DNA of 27,944 nt from Candidatus Shapirobacteria bacterium UBA1420 (lineage in GTDB: Bacteria; Patescibacteriota; Microgenomatia; UBA12405): positions 1,198 through 29,141 of the forward strand of contig DBPM01000017.1 in NCBI GenBank assembly GCA_002304845.1. Direction: 5' to 3'. Both the position numbers and the translations under genes were made by a program. The notes below the pieces were generated by a model that ran no database searches, was not told where the DNA came from, and saw nothing but the letters and a program-made list of their open reading frames with translations. Positions 5,255-11,083 of this stretch are shown here, one piece after another. Position 1 is the first letter of the stretch; each line of letters starts with the position of its first letter.

Positions 5255-6592
5255 GTGAGTCTGATTATTTTTATACTTTGTTTATTTTTTCCCTCTAAAA
5301 TTTTAGCGGCCACTACGGTGTCTATTTTGAATTTTCCTGCCGAGGTTTTGGTCGGCGAAACTTTTCCCATTACCTTCAATGTTACTGCCTCTGACATTGG
5401 TACTACTTTTCACTATAAGGCCGTGTCCAACAATAGTGATATTTCCATTTTCCCTGCTTGTGCCAATCGCTATGATGACTGTCAAAATTTAATTATTGGT
5501 GAAAATTTTTTAGCTACAGCTTCTGCTTATCTTAAAATCAATCAAGCTCAACCCCAAAATTCTATTAAAATTCGTATCGCTAATCACTTTAAGCACCAGC
5601 AAAGCTTTGACAGTAATCCAGTAGACATTATTTCCTTAGCTCTACCCAGTATCTCACCTACACCTGAAATTTCCATAATTCCAACCCCAACTCTTTTTGA
5701 ATCCCAATATCCTTATATCACTGAAATTATGCCCAATCCTGAAGATGGCTCGGAATGGGTCGAATTTTATAACCCCCATGAGCAAAATATCCCCTTAAAA
5801 AATCTTTGTATTTTTGATTCATCTCAGAACAAGAAATGCCTGTCAGTCGATATCGATCTGGCTTCGCATCAATATTATCAATTTACCTTTTCAGGTTCTT
5901 TTCTCAATAATTCCGGTGATTCTGTTCATTTTAATCAAGAGACCATCAGTTACTCCAAAGCGCCTAAAAATCTCTCCTATTCATTCCAAAGTGATGGTAA
6001 CTGGTGTTTTGCCCCACCCAGTCCCGGTTTTGGGAATTTTAGTTGTCAAGATTTGTCTGTTGAGTCGTCAGAATTACATCCTGTAGATATTATTTTTATC
6101 CCCGATAAAATCAGAGCCGGGGAGGATTTTAATATTACTTTAAGTCTCAGGTCTGCCGATCTTTATTCTATTCGTCTGGTGCATCCTTTTTCTTCTCCTT
6201 ATTTTGCTTTTAATAATTATCAAAATGATTTTGCTACCGTTAATTTATCTTTATCAGCTTCTCAAAAACTACCCGAGGGTAAATACCCCCTTCTTTTTCA
6301 TCTTAAAAAAGCTGGTTCTAACAAAATTTATGATTATCAGCAGGGGACTTTAGAAGTTTTACCTTTTATTAAAAAAGCTAAAAGTAAAAAAACTACTACC
6401 ACCAAAACTAAATCAGCTCCACTGTGCCCTATCTCCACTCCCGCGGTTTTAGGTACACAGTCGGCTATTGCCAGACAAGCTGTCTTTACTCCCAGTTCAC
6501 CGGATTTCAACACCTTCTCCTGGCTGTTTTTAGCCACAGGTAGTATCCTATTTCTATCACCGATTCTATTTCCAAAACTCTACTCCGATTAA
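5255..6592 (+). CDS. Secreted, C-terminally anchored lamin-tail-domain (LTD) surface protein
   Basis: Signal peptide from a GTG start, LTD signature ITEIMPNPEDGSEWVEFYNP, Pro/Thr linker, Lys/Thr-rich stalk and C-terminal hydrophobic helix. Confidence 0.75.
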   Translation: MSLIIFILCLFFPSKILAATTVSILNFPAEVLVGETFPITFNVTASDIGTTFHYKAVSNNSDISIFPACANRYDDCQNLIIGENFLATASAYLKINQAQPQNSIKIRIANHFKHQQSFDSNPVDIISLALPSISPTPEISIIPTPTLFESQYPYITEIMPNPEDGSEWVEFYNPHEQNIPLKNLCIFDSSQNKKCLSVDIDLASHQYYQFTFSGSFLNNSGDSVHFNQETISYSKAPKNLSYSFQSDGNWCFAPPSPGFGNFSCQDLSVESSELHPVDIIFIPDKIRAGEDFNITLSLRSADLYSIRLVHPFSSPYFAFNNYQNDFATVNLSLSASQKLPEGKYPLLFHLKKAGSNKIYDYQQGTLEVLPFIKKAKSKKTTTTKTKSAPLCPISTPAVLGTQSAIARQAVFTPSSPDFNTFSWLFLATGSILFLSPILFPKLYSD

Positions 6593-6609: not shown

Positions 6610-6921
6610 ATGGGAATCATTTTTTATTTCTCCGGTCTGCCTACTACTGGTATCACTCCCCAAATTCTGCCTCGTTTTCTTTTCTTTAAACTATTGCATT
6701 TAGGGGAATATATTATTTTAGCTTTCCTGCTTTTTTATGCCTTTTTCGATCTCAAGCTTAGTTTTATTTGGGCCTATCTTTTTGCTCTCAGTGATGAGTT
6801 TCATCAAAGCTTTATTCCCGGACGTACCGGTAAATTTACCGACACTCTCTTTGATTTAAGCGGTATTTTATTAGGACTTTTATTGGCCACCTTCTTCATT
6901 CGTCAATCACCCAAACGCTAA
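6610..6921 (+). CDS. VanZ-family membrane protein (true start may lie upstream of 6610)
   Basis: WMGIIFYFS, KLLHLGEY, SDEFHQSFIPGR...DTLFD are VanZ signatures. Confidence 0.85.
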   Translation: MGIIFYFSGLPTTGITPQILPRFLFFKLLHLGEYIILAFLLFYAFFDLKLSFIWAYLFALSDEFHQSFIPGRTGKFTDTLFDLSGILLGLLLATFFIRQSPKR

Positions 6922-6994: not shown

Positions 6995-7549
6995 ATGAAA
7001 AAAATTTTTATACTCCTATCAGTCTTAGTAGTTATCGTCTTTGCTACCAAATCAGCCAGAGCTTTATTTAGTTCTCAAGCTAAAACCGCTTCCTTGACCT
7101 TTACTACCGGCAACGCCGATTTACAAATCAGTGCCGATTCTCAAAATTGGAGTAATACTCTCGCTGTTGCCTCTAATCATAACAATATGAGTTCAGGTTA
7201 CAGTAGTAGCCAAGATTTTTATTTAAAAAACAACAGTCTTTCTCCGATTTCTTTGAAAATCAGTGTCCGTTTGGAAGATTTTTCTCCCACTGAAAATGCC
7301 CCTGCTTGGCCCATTATTGGTGATAAAATTCACATTACTTTTCAAAAATTAATTGGTACTCAATGGACCGATGTCGCTACTGCCAATCTAAAAGATTGGC
7401 GTGACTCTACTCAGGACATTGACACTTTGTCTCAAAATACTGCTTCTCAGTATCGTTTTCAGGTCACTCTCGACGATGTTGATAATACTCATGCCGGACA
7501 GTCTTTATCCAATCTCTCCTTTAAATTTACCGGTCTCCAGTCTCCGTGA
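6995..7549 (+). CDS. TasA/CalY (camelysin, M73)-like secreted subunit, 184 aa
   Basis: Start moved to ATG 6995 (MKKIFILL signal peptide). Mature N-terminus ALFSSQAKTASLTFTTGNADLQI resembles the SipW-cognate A.F.D.....N.F.AG..DL pattern. Internal N...GY.....FYLKN and C-terminal N.HAGQSL....FKFTGLQ. Confidence 0.65.
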   Translation: MKKIFILLSVLVVIVFATKSARALFSSQAKTASLTFTTGNADLQISADSQNWSNTLAVASNHNNMSSGYSSSQDFYLKNNSLSPISLKISVRLEDFSPTENAPAWPIIGDKIHITFQKLIGTQWTDVATANLKDWRDSTQDIDTLSQNTASQYRFQVTLDDVDNTHAGQSLSNLSFKFTGLQSP

Positions 7550-9156
7550 AAATCATTCTTACTTTAGTCAGTTTTTTACTGTTGTATTTTAAGGTTTCGT
7601 TGCCTGTTTTAGCTACTTTCAACTCCACCGCCACCTATCACAGTCTCAGTTTTTCCATCGCCGAACAAAATCCACCTCAGTCTGAGATTGAAGAGTTACC
7701 CTTTCAGGTCACTAATCAAAATTCTGTCCCTATTACCGTTAAAGCTCTCGATGATAGTGGTGTTCAAAAAATTTTTTTATATTACTCTTTTAATTTCGGA
7801 CCCTGGATTCTTTTTGATGAAGCCCAATCCGGTCAATATCAGTTTAATTTTTCAGCACCTCAAGGTGATGGTTTATATTCTTTTCGTTCTTTAGCTGTGG
7901 ATATTTACAATCATCTCGAAGATAAAGAAGAAGATTTTTTCAGCTCCCAACTTAAATTTGACACTACAGCTCCTACTAGCAATCTAATTATTTTTCCTGC
8001 TACTCACAGCTCCCTCTCTGCAACCCTGGATAATAACAACCCTTTGTTTGTTCAAGATATTTTTATACCCCAATCAGTCTCGGCTCATCTAGATTTTGCC
8101 TTTCGTTTTCGCAGCCAAGACATTGCTGAATATAATTTTTTTGATGTTTATTTAACCGATTCTTCCGGTGAAAATATTTTAGAAAAAATTCTCACTTATG
8201 GTAATTTGGACAGTAGTAATTTAGATCATGATTCTGGTTGGCTTCATCTGAGCCGTAATCTTAGTCATCTGGCGGGAAAGTTTTTTAAACTTATTTTTAG
8301 GCTCACCGATTTAAATCATGACTCTGATACCACCTCTGTTTTAGAAATAGCTGATCTCCAAACTCACTTACTCGACTCTCGATTGCCACTCAATCCAGAT
8401 CTAAACCTTTTGGTTACTGATCTTGGTTCGGAAATTATTGATTACCCAACCTTGTCTCCTCTGGAAGTTGGTGAAAATATAGTTTCCGTTTCCGCCACCG
8501 ATTCCGCCGGCAACTCTGAGTTACCACAACATTATCCCATTGTTGTTTTACCTGATTTAGTTATTAACAGAGTCGATAAATATGCTTTTACTCTCTTTAA
8601 TAATTCTCTGACCCAGGTTTTAGATTTATCAAATTTAACCTATTCTCTCAATAATTCATCGCCACTAACTATAGACAGTAGCCAATTATCACCTCTCCAA
8701 AGCCTGACTGTGTTTTTTCCCAGTACGCAAACCACTGCCAATTTAAAGCTCTTTCAAGATGATAATTTAGTTACTTCTTTTCAGGCTGACGATTTGGATA
8801 ATTTTTATTGGCAAAGACAATTTTCCGGTTTAGGTCCCTGGTTAAAAATTGCTTCTTTACCAACTGTCAATTTAGAGTCTAGATTGAGTGTCTCCAAGAT
8901 TACTTTGACCATTTCCGGATTGGCTACCACTCTCGCCGACATGAGTTATACCATTGATTATCAAGATGCTGCCGGCGATCAACAGATTTTTGGGCAAATT
9001 TTACCCGAGCAAATTGATGAACAAGGTTTTGTTTCCCGAGATTTTTTCCTAGGCACTTGCAGCAGTGGCGGTACCTGTGTTCCTGCCTCTGGCTTGTCTA
9101 AAAAATTTATGGTTACCTTTAGTAATCTCGCTCCCCAGGAGTTTAATTTTGAATGA
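7546..9156 (+). CDS. Large secreted beta-rich protein: TasA-like N-terminal strand, Ig-like repeats, degenerate LTD-like segment, C-terminal GTCSSGGTC domain
   Basis: 536-aa ORF, GTGA-coupled to the previous gene. Signal peptide then ATFNSTATYHSLSFSIA. Ig-like hallmarks (DTTAPTS, VSATDSAGNSE). No C-terminal TM helix. Confidence 0.7.
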   Translation: MKIILTLVSFLLLYFKVSLPVLATFNSTATYHSLSFSIAEQNPPQSEIEELPFQVTNQNSVPITVKALDDSGVQKIFLYYSFNFGPWILFDEAQSGQYQFNFSAPQGDGLYSFRSLAVDIYNHLEDKEEDFFSSQLKFDTTAPTSNLIIFPATHSSLSATLDNNNPLFVQDIFIPQSVSAHLDFAFRFRSQDIAEYNFFDVYLTDSSGENILEKILTYGNLDSSNLDHDSGWLHLSRNLSHLAGKFFKLIFRLTDLNHDSDTTSVLEIADLQTHLLDSRLPLNPDLNLLVTDLGSEIIDYPTLSPLEVGENIVSVSATDSAGNSELPQHYPIVVLPDLVINRVDKYAFTLFNNSLTQVLDLSNLTYSLNNSSPLTIDSSQLSPLQSLTVFFPSTQTTANLKLFQDDNLVTSFQADDLDNFYWQRQFSGLGPWLKIASLPTVNLESRLSVSKITLTISGLATTLADMSYTIDYQDAAGDQQIFGQILPEQIDEQGFVSRDFFLGTCSSGGTCVPASGLSKKFMVTFSNLAPQEFNFE

Positions 9157-10202
9157 TTTTTATTCTTTGTCTGTTTCTACTTTTGACCAAACCGGTTATG
9201 GCCAAGGAATTGATTATTGCTAATTTTTATCAAGCTAAAAATATCTATCCTGGCTTTAGCGGCCAAAATTCTCTTAAAATTACCAATCCGGAAAATACTG
9301 ATTGTCCTCTTAGTTTAAGATTGGAACCGCTTTCTTCAGATTATTTATCAGATCAAATCAATTTAAGCATCATTGGACGCCACCAAGTTCTCTACGGTGG
9401 TAACCTCAACCAACTTCATCATCAATTCACTTTTTTAACCACTCTCAAAGCCAAAGAAAGTCTTGATTTATTCTGGCAATTTTCTTTCCCTCGTCAAGCT
9501 GACAATCTTTTTCAAAATTCCCACTATCAATCAGATATCATTTTCAATTTTGATTGTAACCAACCTTCATCATCCTCTACAGGTTGTCATCAGTCCATTC
9601 CCAGATATACCCCCATTATTAACAAAGTAGTGCCGGGTATCAATTCAGTCACTTTATTTTGGACGGAACCTAATGATACTTTTACTTATTACCTAATCGC
9701 TTATAGCCAAGAAACGCATGCCGCCACTTTTGCCAACCCTAATATTGGTCCTCCTGGTACCACTAGTTACACCATTAACAATCTAGATGCAGGTGTTCCA
9801 TACTTTTTTAAGATTAAAGTCGGTAATGGTTGTGCCACCGGCTCTTTTTCAGAAATTGTCAGTGCCACTCCTTTGGGTGAAGCCACTTTTAACACTCCTG
9901 CCTCCGGATTTTTAAACTCATCTGTTTTAGGTTTATCCACTGCTCCTGATTATTTTCCTGAAGACTCACCCGCCTCTGAGGATAAAAAATGTCTAGCCAT
10001 AATTCCTTTCACCTTTGTTCTAGCTCTGATAGTTAATTTATTTTTTCTCAAAAAACCGGTTTTTCTTTTACTATCATCACTCCTGGCACTGACAGTTGAT
10101 TATTATCTGTCTCGTTTTACTTGTTTACCCACCTCGTACCTTGTTCTTACCCCCATTATTTCTTTTATTATTCCTTACCTACTTTCTTTCAAAATCCGAT
10201 AA
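9153..10202 (+). CDS. Membrane-anchored protein with a TasA-like domain, a fibronectin type III domain and C-terminal TM helices
   Basis: Signal peptide; NIYPGF.....KITN and DNLFQ......IIFNF; FN3 pattern SVTLFWTEP..YYLIAY..SYTINNL....YFFKIKVGNG.....SEIVSATP; hydrophobic C-terminus. ATGA-coupled. Confidence 0.72.
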   Translation: MIFILCLFLLLTKPVMAKELIIANFYQAKNIYPGFSGQNSLKITNPENTDCPLSLRLEPLSSDYLSDQINLSIIGRHQVLYGGNLNQLHHQFTFLTTLKAKESLDLFWQFSFPRQADNLFQNSHYQSDIIFNFDCNQPSSSSTGCHQSIPRYTPIINKVVPGINSVTLFWTEPNDTFTYYLIAYSQETHAATFANPNIGPPGTTSYTINNLDAGVPYFFKIKVGNGCATGSFSEIVSATPLGEATFNTPASGFLNSSVLGLSTAPDYFPEDSPASEDKKCLAIIPFTFVLALIVNLFFLKKPVFLLLSSLLALTVDYYLSRFTCLPTSYLVLTPIISFIIPYLLSFKIR

Positions 10203-10222
10203 ATTTAGTTTATACTGAATTT

Positions 10223-11083
10223 ATGAAAGGGTTTTTTTCTTTACTTTTTATTCCTCAAGAAAGGAATAATCACCGAGCTCTTCTCCTGCACCCTTCATTT
10301 TTAGGTGTTATTATTGCTGTTTATCTTCTCAATCAGTCTCTAATCAAATCGTTAAGTATGCTCAAGCCTGGAATCTTGGGTTATTCTTCGGAAATTACTG
10401 TCCAAAAAGTCCTCGATCAGACCAATTTGCAAAGACAAAAACTCGGTCTACCACCTCTGAAATATAACGCTTTGCTCTCAGAATCTGCGGTTCTGAAGGC
10501 TGAAGATATGTTCCAAAATGATTACTGGGCTCACAATTCTCCGGCAGGTAAAAGTCCTTGGGATTTTTTCCAACAGGCCGGTTACCATTATACTGTAGCT
10601 GGGGAAAATTTAGCTCGTGATTTTTATGATACTGAGTCCATGTTAAAAGCTTGGATGAACTCTCCAACTCATCGAGATAATATTGTCAATAGTAAATATC
10701 AAGAAATCGGTATTGGTGTGGTCAATGGTGTCCTCAATGGTGTTAAAACCACTCTGGTGGTCCAACATTTTGCCACCCCCACTCCTCAGCAATCTAAAAT
10801 CGCTGAAACTTCACCTACCCCTCTTCAATCTCAATCCCAAGCTTTAGGTTCTACTGTTGAAGTTTCTCCTCCGGTCTCTTCTCCTAAAATTAATCCTCTA
10901 TTTTTAAGTAAAATTTTGGGCACCGTTATTTTTGGGATTATTGTTGTCGTTTTAATTATCGATTCTTACATTACTCTTAAACAAGGCACCTCTCGTTTCA
11001 CTGGTTCTTCCGCTGGTCATATTGGTTTTTTGATGGTCATTTTAATGTTACTTATTTTTACTCAACAGGGGAGTATTTTTTAA
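10223..11083 (+). CDS. CAP (SCP/YkwD-like) domain membrane protein, 286 aa
   Basis: TNLQRQKLGLPPL, KAEDMFQNDYWAHNSP, AGENLA, WMNSPTHRDNI, IGIGV. Start moved to ATG 10223 because TATACT lies 6 nt upstream. Confidence 0.9.
   Translation: MKGFFSLLFIPQERNNHRALLLHPSFLGVIIAVYLLNQSLIKSLSMLKPGILGYSSEITVQKVLDQTNLQRQKLGLPPLKYNALLSESAVLKAEDMFQNDYWAHNSPAGKSPWDFFQQAGYHYTVAGENLARDFYDTESMLKAWMNSPTHRDNIVNSKYQEIGIGVVNGVLNGVKTTLVVQHFATPTPQQSKIAETSPTPLQSQSQALGSTVEVSPPVSSPKINPLFLSKILGTVIFGIIVVVLIIDSYITLKQGTSRFTGSSAGHIGFLMVILMLLIFTQQGSIF

Follow-up and report, generated by a model that had tools for sequence, protein, structure and literature searches.

Introduction

The closest described relatives of the system reported here are extracellular fibres whose subunits are joined by donor-strand complementation. 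In Bacillus subtilis the tapA-sipW-tasA operon specifies the TasA donor-strand fibre (PDB 8AUR, 5OF1/5OF2; PMC9674648, PMC10151520), and in archaea fibres of this kind include the bundling pili of AbpA and AbpB (PDB 7UEG; PMC9245690), in which AbpB is proposed to initiate the fibre by donating a strand and to carry adhesin domains (PMC9245690), and the Pyrodictium cannulae, built from CanA (PDB 9H8B, 7UII). For the haloarchaeal Tafi, a model has been put forward with TafC as the tip, TafA as the shaft, TafF as an anchor with three transmembrane (TM) helices and TafD as a two-domain peptidase (PMC11821415). Here we analyze a three-gene cassette at positions 6995–10202 of a 27,944-nucleotide (nt) stretch of DNA, hereafter the window, from Candidatus Shapirobacteria bacterium UBA1420 (assembly GCA_002304845.1, here G000; contig DBPM01000017.1, positions 1,198 to 29,141), a member of the candidate phyla radiation (CPR). 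The source assembly consists of 513 kb in 53 contigs and is 89% complete. The most likely products of the three genes are components of a TasA-related surface fibre, namely its shaft, its anchor in the membrane and a tip or accessory protein.

How TasA-like fibres are anchored is an unsettled matter both in Bacillus, in which the role of TapA is debated, and in the archaeal bundling pili. CPR bacteria live attached to hosts and, to our knowledge, type IV pili are the only attachment organelles that have been studied in them. Our analysis makes it probable that the cassette produces a cell-anchored TasA-type filament assembled by donor-strand complementation, in which gene 1 would be the repeating subunit, gene 3 the base and gene 2 a distal component.

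Results

Organization of the three-gene cassette

All three genes lie on the forward strand. Gene 1, the presumed shaft subunit with a TasA/camelysin fold, spans 6995..7549 and encodes 184 residues from an ATG, its relatives beginning at the same MKK; gene 2, the candidate secreted accessory or tip protein, spans 7546..9156 and encodes 536 residues from a GTG start; and gene 3, the presumed membrane base, spans 9153..10202 and encodes 349 residues. The stop codon of gene 1 overlaps the start of gene 2 in a GTGA (7546..7549, reading ccGTGAaa) and the stop of gene 2 overlaps the start of gene 3 in an ATGA (9153..9156, reading gaATGAtt). G410 and G415, the genomes nearest to that of the window, have the same two 4-nt overlaps. 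Each product starts with a hydrophobic segment followed by a readable A-x-A signal-peptide site (the arrow marks the cut), which is ARA↓LF in gene 1, VLA↓TF in gene 2 and VMA↓KE in gene 3, and the signal peptides read as Sec-type (MKKIF...), with no twin-arginine motif. The original prediction, made from the letters of the window alone, had described three translationally coupled open reading frames (ORFs) with GTGA and ATGA overlaps and a signal peptide on each, and the ORF coordinates, junction sequences and cut sites agree with it on all of these points.

Gene 1 encodes a distant relative of TasA and camelysin

The gene 1 product is a distant TasA/camelysin relative, and this kinship is visible only through wider HMMER searching, fold comparison and profile-profile comparison. 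In direct scans its own sequence had no Pfam or NCBIfam match at E≤1, so that it misses both PF12389 and TIGR04088; a six-frame search of the whole genome with PF12389 found nothing, and neither gene 1 nor a profile made from it matched any PDB sequence. A HMMER search with gene 1 returned 117 representative clusters of proteins of ~180–190 residues. PF12389 (Peptidase_M73) is matched by 62/84 aligned relatives, with a best E of 8.5e-9, and TIGR04088, the cognate SipW signal model, is weakly matched by seven of 16 close relatives (best E 0.0038). The family shares a near-universal motif, A-x-A↓[AYLF]-F-[ST]-[SD]...F.TG.A.L, which by its letters appears to be the classic SipW-type N-terminus. 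In the window the signal peptide occupies 6995–7063 (residues 1–23, cut ARA↓LF), the predicted N-terminal donor strand 7064–7120 (residues 24–42) and the jelly-roll body 7121–7546 (residues 43–184).

An AlphaFold2 model of gene 1 had a predicted local distance difference test score (pLDDT) of 85.7, and its top fold match was the TasA fibre subunit 8aur_A (Z 9.7, 131 residues aligned, root mean square deviation 2.8). CanA of the Pyrodictium cannulae came second (Z 8.9), followed by TasA in its monomeric form (5of2, Z 8.1), while FimA-type pilins ranked lower, with Z about 7. The claim that gene 1 combines a TasA-type N-terminal strand with a TasA-like body thus holds through its relatives and its fold, but not through a family match of its own sequence.

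Gene 3 is a strandless paralogue with predicted membrane helices

Gene 3 begins with a Sec signal (9153–9203, residues 1–17), followed by a strandless TasA-like domain (9204–9569, residues 18–139), an FN3 domain (9585–9881, residues 145–243), a disordered linker and three predicted TM helices (9993–10199, residues 281–349), with the positively charged KK and KIR on the inside. When the gene 3 and gene 1 families were compared by hhalign, they matched with a probability of 97.4% and an E of 1.2e-11 over gene 3 residues 1–139. The alignment leaves a gap in gene 3 opposite the ALFSSQAKTASLTFTTGN of gene 1, and the 16 residues that form the gene 1 N-terminal strand are absent; therefore, mature gene 3 begins at the equivalent of gene 1 residue 40. 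In a direct scan PF12389 did not match gene 3 at E≤1. The model of the N-domain is of moderate confidence (pLDDT about 75–82) and, because FN3 matches swamped the fold search with the whole gene 3 model, the identity of this domain rests on the hhalign comparison. The FN3 domain itself is matched by Pfam at 6e-10 and by the fold search at Z about 13.

The C-terminal helices are predicted at residues 287–298, 302–320 and 329–348, and the charges of KK and KIR fit an ectodomain that would face outward. The order anticipated by the original prediction, a TasA-like body lacking the strand, then FN3, then C-terminal helices, was recovered in full, and the expectation of TasA-like folds was borne out for gene 1 by its match to the TasA fibre and for the gene 3 N-domain through its homology to gene 1. 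Gene 3 would accordingly be a paralogue of the gene 1 sandwich that has lost, or never had, its own strand, held in the membrane by the three helices with FN3 as a spacer. Across 20 homologues the helices contain the invariant polar residues N295, D316 and Y317, and C280, P285 and P341 are also invariant, which suggests that gene 3 may be more than a passive anchor, for example by touching another membrane protein.

The gene 1 strand is modelled in the groove of gene 3

We modelled gene 3 (residues 18–140) with two copies of gene 1 (residues 25–184), alongside three controls. The complex gave an interaction prediction score from aligned errors (ipSAE) of 0.70 (0.70, 0.66 and 0.77 in three runs) versus 0.00 for the best control. 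In a benchmark the 0.70 mark was reached by 58/80 solved complexes and by 2/110 mismatched pairs, a comparison that is rough given our own alignments and chain layout. The confident interface brings gene 1 residues 31–41 against gene 3 residues 21–33 and 120–129, which are the first and last strands of the domain. The modelled arrangement is one of donor-strand complementation, and the docking in trans that had been proposed for the gene 1 strand takes the form of an insertion between these two strands of gene 3.

We infer that, after signal cleavage, the strand of gene 1 (about residues 24–42) would enter the open β-sandwich of a neighbouring subunit, so that gene 1 would polymerise. Gene 3 could accept a strand only, and it would therefore stand at the cell-proximal end. 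A different and rather improbable reading is that no polymer forms, gene 3 being a membrane receptor or chaperone-like holder that captures the strand of single gene 1 copies for surface display without a fibre. Such a role would suit the modelled docking, which is heterotypic only, gene 1 into gene 3, and also the gene 1 monomer model, which is self-complemented, with strand 29–38 packed on its own body as in monomeric TasA. However, the best structural matches of gene 1 (8aur_A, CanA and the TasA monomer) are all donor-strand polymers, the residues of the strand and of the groove are strongly conserved across the gene 1 family, and many of the loci that we surveyed (see below) hold multiple full-length subunit paralogues. 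These observations favor a polymer of gene 1.

Gene 2 as the remnant of a SipW fusion

Gene 2 consists of a signal peptide (7546–7614, residues 1–23, cut VLA↓TF), a strand-like motif, FNSTATYHSLSFSIAEQN (about 7615–7668, residues 24–41), and, after it, immunoglobulin (Ig)-like and LTD-like β domains. A hidden Markov model (HMM) of the gene 1 body found no TasA body in gene 2, and the protein has no C-terminal hydrophobic segment or anchor. Its own sequence had no TIGR04088 match at E≤1 and, like gene 1, it misses PF12389 as well; the comparison with a protein atlas gave no usable match. The domain signals of the family are weak (Big_13 in 7/12 members and LTD in 5/12, best E 0.0034), and BLASTP revealed no significant similarity between the LTD-like region and the LTD protein encoded upstream of the cassette.

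The relatives of gene 2 point to its origin. The search returned 13 proteins including that of the window, and 11 were aligned with gene 2. Seven of the 11 are proteins of 690–879 residues with an N-terminal signal peptidase I of the endoplasmic reticulum (ER)/archaeal type (SipW). TIGR02228 scored 87–93 bits, against a cut-off of 51.85, on the four fusion orthologues that were scanned, and the gene 2 family profile also matches SEC11A/C. In these fusions the peptidase and its second TM helix lead, through a short loop of basic character, to an internal signal peptide, the sequence A↓LYSSTATxSxLTFSI and then the domains that they have in common with gene 2, and the start of gene 2 in the window coincides exactly with the internal signal peptide. 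On these alignments, gene 2 is what remains of a SipW peptidase fused to an accessory protein, and it is orthologous to the C-terminal part of the fusions; the original prediction did not recognise this origin.

The donor-strand reading of gene 2 was assessed with an HMM of the strand as it occurs in the gene 1 family, and 2016 unrelated ORFs served as negatives (maximum 7.2 bits). The best match fell at the homologous site in 10/12 gene 2 family members, three of which (9.4–12.0 bits) exceeded all negatives. Because the copy in the window is itself at noise level, the reading rests on orthology and on the retention of the motif after SipW was lost. Carrying a strand-like N-terminus and no sandwich, gene 2 could donate only, and it would therefore be placed at the distal end. 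There it might cap gene 1 as a distal initiator, an adhesive tip or both, like TapA, AbpB or TafC. The description of gene 2 in the original prediction is in this way partly upheld, since the missing TasA body, the missing anchor and a strand-like motif at the SipW-type site of the orthologues were all found, but the motif of the window copy is at noise level and the Ig-like and LTD-like assignments are weak.

Alternatively, only genes 1 and 3 would form the fibre or display unit and gene 2 would be an independent secreted adhesin or enzyme, its motif a relic SipW cleavage tag. The motif does coincide precisely in position with the internal cut of the fusions, and in the window it is insignificant alone (−2.6 bits with the strand HMM; hhalign 15%). 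Nevertheless, its likeness to the gene 1 strand (xF/YxSxxxxxxL[ST]FS) continues for >12 residues past the cut, beyond what a peptidase site needs, it stays conserved in three genomes without SipW, large donor-only proteins recur in 22/60 surveyed loci, and TapA, AbpB and TafC provide precedents (PMC10151520, PMC9245690, PMC11821415). We regard a relic tag as unlikely, and favor gene 2 as a putative donor-only component of the fibre.

Loss of the dedicated peptidase and continued selection

The original prediction had remarked on the lack of a SipW-type peptidase in the window. This was confirmed and extended to the 89%-complete genome, where searches with TIGR02228 and with the peptidase domain of a relative found none, and the sole signal peptidase that we found is LepB-type (TIGR02227, 159 bits). 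Nor did we find SipW in G410 (93% complete) or G415 (97%), the genomes nearest to that of the window, both of which have gene 1. In eight genomes of the same genus gene 1 is directly followed by a SipW frame of 368–1047 residues, at least 732 residues long in seven of them, and in a ninth (G404) SipW lies elsewhere on the same contig. Since gene 2 derives from a peptidase fusion, the absence of the peptidase represents a lineage-specific loss rather than a gene located elsewhere. In the proposed course of events, gene 2 ancestrally formed the rear part of a fusion that began with a dedicated SipW-type signal peptidase, and the peptidase domain was then deleted in this lineage. It is this loss from the fusion gene that, to judge by the sequences compared, seems particular to the window. 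With the SipW domain deleted, cleavage would have to fall to the general LepB-type peptidase.

The aromatic P2′ residues are kept in gene 1 (LF, 7064–7069) and gene 2 (TF, 7615–7620), as they are in G410 and G415 (LF/LF; VY/AF), and E. coli LepB cleaves sites with Phe or Tyr at P2′ poorly (PMC10269814). We also considered the P2 Arg of the window, where many relatives have Tyr or Phe, as an adaptation to LepB, and rejected this idea since Arg and other residues occur at P2 in loci that keep SipW.

To estimate selection we compared the three SipW-less genomes G000, G410 and G415, with dS values of 0.4–2.1. The ratio of nonsynonymous to synonymous substitution rates (dN/dS) was 0.10–0.14 for gene 1, 0.10 for gene 2 and 0.15–0.19 for gene 3. 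This purifying selection (dN/dS 0.10–0.19) indicates that the cassette has been maintained after the loss of SipW. It also bears on the idea that the cassette is a decaying relic, its proteins unprocessed and unassembled since SipW was lost and its genes on their way out. The failure to find SipW in any of the three genomes, the retention of aromatic P2′ residues suited to SipW (PMC10269814) and the splitting of gene 2 into two ORFs in G404 might be taken in its favor. Against it, the trio is intact and its 4-nt overlaps are kept in the three genomes despite this divergence and under these dN/dS values, and stretches of genes 2 and 3 occur in metatranscriptome contigs. We consider decay very unlikely and a cassette that is still maintained the better account. 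The contigs (two runs of one study) match at 97–99% identity over 8322–8640, 9181–10211 and 10273–10607; since DNA can occur in such libraries, these matches are weak evidence either way.

The locus in G404 (L099, G404:C1:26500-39500) is a SipW-less trio in which gene 2 appears as two ORFs of 392 and 192 residues, which may reflect either a frameshift or a faulty assembly. On the other strand, some 6 kb away, this genome has a second small cassette consisting of a subunit, SipW, a strandless body (192 residues) and SipW.

Conservation in close relatives and across the phylum

In close kin the trio lies in a syntenic neighbourhood, with insertions only outside it and never within. In one relative with the SipW fusion (L005, 2614–7899), a 1761-residue β-helix protein (NosD/Beta_helix, Big_13) is encoded between VanZ and gene 1, and gene 3 is separated from the CAP gene by a 468-residue gene of opposite orientation; the trio itself is uninterrupted.

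A whole-genome search found a gene-1-like gene in 69/401 genomes of the phylum, and we surveyed 60 loci from 52 genomes. SipW adjoins the subunit gene in 48/60 loci, with a frame of at least 300 residues (fusions) in 16/60. Strandless-body genes occur in 25/60 and those with a C-terminal TM segment in 17/60. The order subunit, SipW, strandless body is present in 20/60 loci. The conservation of the three-gene order that had been anticipated is therefore found in close kin, and phylum-wide in the form of this order. One locus (L059 8648–9976, G110) encodes a 442-residue fusion of a SipW peptidase domain, a strandless TasA-like body and a C-terminal TM segment, which mirrors the two-domain peptidase TafD of the haloarchaeal Tafi (PMC11821415).

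Genomic neighbourhood and source environments

The trio is located within a co-directional run of envelope genes that is syntenic in relatives. Upstream on the forward strand are a gene for a 445-residue protein that combines a signal peptide and an LTD domain with a C-terminal TM segment (5255–6592) and a gene for a VanZ protein (6610–6921). Downstream, 20 nt past gene 3, lies a forward-strand gene for a CAP/YkwD-domain protein with C-terminal TM segments (about 10223–11083). The named homologues derive from metagenome-assembled genomes of Candidatus Shapirobacteria and Woesebacteria, and metagenomes that contain DNA of the window come from sludge, wastewater and biofilm.

Discussion

Evidence for and against an anchored fibre

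The architecture of shaft, tip and anchor suggested by the original prediction is supported by the fold of gene 1, by its docking into gene 3 and by the gene order. Several observations weigh against it. Besides the family matches that the products of genes 1 and 2 lack and the noise-level strand motif of gene 2, the score of the modelled complex may partly reflect the memory that the model has of solved TasA-like fibres. Although no SipW is found, genes 1 and 2 retain Phe or Tyr at P2′, at sites of a kind that E. coli LepB cuts poorly (PMC10269814). By a crude scan, 8/25 strandless-body proteins do not have a C-terminal TM segment. Gene 1 is not represented in the metatranscriptome contigs, which match portions of genes 2 and 3 and of the CAP gene. 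Finally, filaments are not known from any CPR bacterium that carries the cassette.

Implications for surface filaments of CPR bacteria

Our data tentatively suggest a broader picture, which we hold with less assurance than the anchored filament itself, namely that CPR bacteria/Patescibacteria widely possess a second surface filament besides type IV pili. This would be a chaperone-free TasA-type donor-strand fibre seated on a strandless membrane-anchored paralogue, with exchangeable donor-only adhesin ends and a peptidase often fused to the tip protein, and it would be independent of that peptidase in the present lineage. Such a second fibre, widespread and with tip domains that could be swapped, would be a candidate for what determines attachment in CPR bacteria, although it may instead serve in a matrix. 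If the reading is true, the strandless anchor would explain how the TasA-like fibres of one branch of the family are held to the cell. As an answer to the anchoring question, a strandless membrane-anchored paralogue is simple and directly testable, and in print it exists only for the haloarchaeal Tafi, from modelling. The reading would also mean that the LepB of this organism is able to cut sites with an aromatic P2′. The lineage offers a natural experiment on peptidase specificity, in which the dedicated peptidase was lost while SipW-style cut sites were kept under purifying selection.

Comparison with known systems

The cassette is common in the phylum but unstudied. Our literature search for it in CPR bacteria found no paper on it, only the occurrence of PF12389 homologues in Patescibacteria, mentioned by Wang et al. 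(PMC9245690).

Chaperone-usher pili (FimA/FimH) share with it the donor-strand principle and a terminal subunit without a donor strand, and FimA-type folds are among the weaker matches of gene 1. Their polarity is reversed, however, since the strandless FimH is the tip and the strandless protein here would be the base, and the present system has no chaperone, no usher and no outer membrane. We take the resemblance as one of analogy and not of membership.

The AbpA/AbpB pili and the CanA cannulae are closer. Their subunits, too, are TasA-related jelly rolls, and they polymerise through donated strands with neither chaperone nor usher. They are processed by the general signal peptidase, no dedicated enzyme being encoded nearby, a situation that would now have to apply in the window. 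They differ in their other operon content and in that no strandless membrane-anchored paralogue has been assigned as their base.

With the Bacillus operon the cassette has in common a major subunit of the same fold and superfamily (the top fold match of gene 1 and the PF12389 matches of its relatives), an N-terminus of the A-x-A↓xF(S/N)D type that becomes the donated strand and an accessory protein that, like TapA, has a strand and no subunit body; a dedicated ER/archaeal-type signal peptidase in the operon is a likeness that applies only to the relatives of the window. Unlike Bacillus, it has a third component, the strandless TasA-like domain with its own membrane anchor, and the peptidase is fused to the accessory protein in relatives and lost in the window. 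The sequences of the window also fall below Pfam/TIGRFAM thresholds, and the organism belongs to the CPR and has an assembly of 0.5 Mb.

The strongest parallel in overall design is with Tafi, for which a donor-only tip or initiator, an extending shaft and a holding anchor have been proposed. TafF has an N-terminal pilin-like domain that accepts the shaft strand, followed by three TM helices, as we have modelled for gene 3, and its role in the Tafi paper also rests on AlphaFold modelling (PMC11821415). The Tafi peptidase is a dedicated S26-type enzyme with an extra extracellular domain. There are differences as well: the Tafi subunits use twin-arginine translocation (Tat) signals whereas those of the trio are Sec-type, the host here is bacterial and not archaeal, Tafi pilin topology is reported to be distinct from that of Sec-dependent bundling pilins (PMC12337348), and gene 1 is closest to TasA and CanA. 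By analogy, gene 3 would work like TafF, and we do not file it as a member of that family. The architecture that we favor is thus not unprecedented, as a model of tip, shaft and membrane anchor has already been published for Tafi (PMC11821415).

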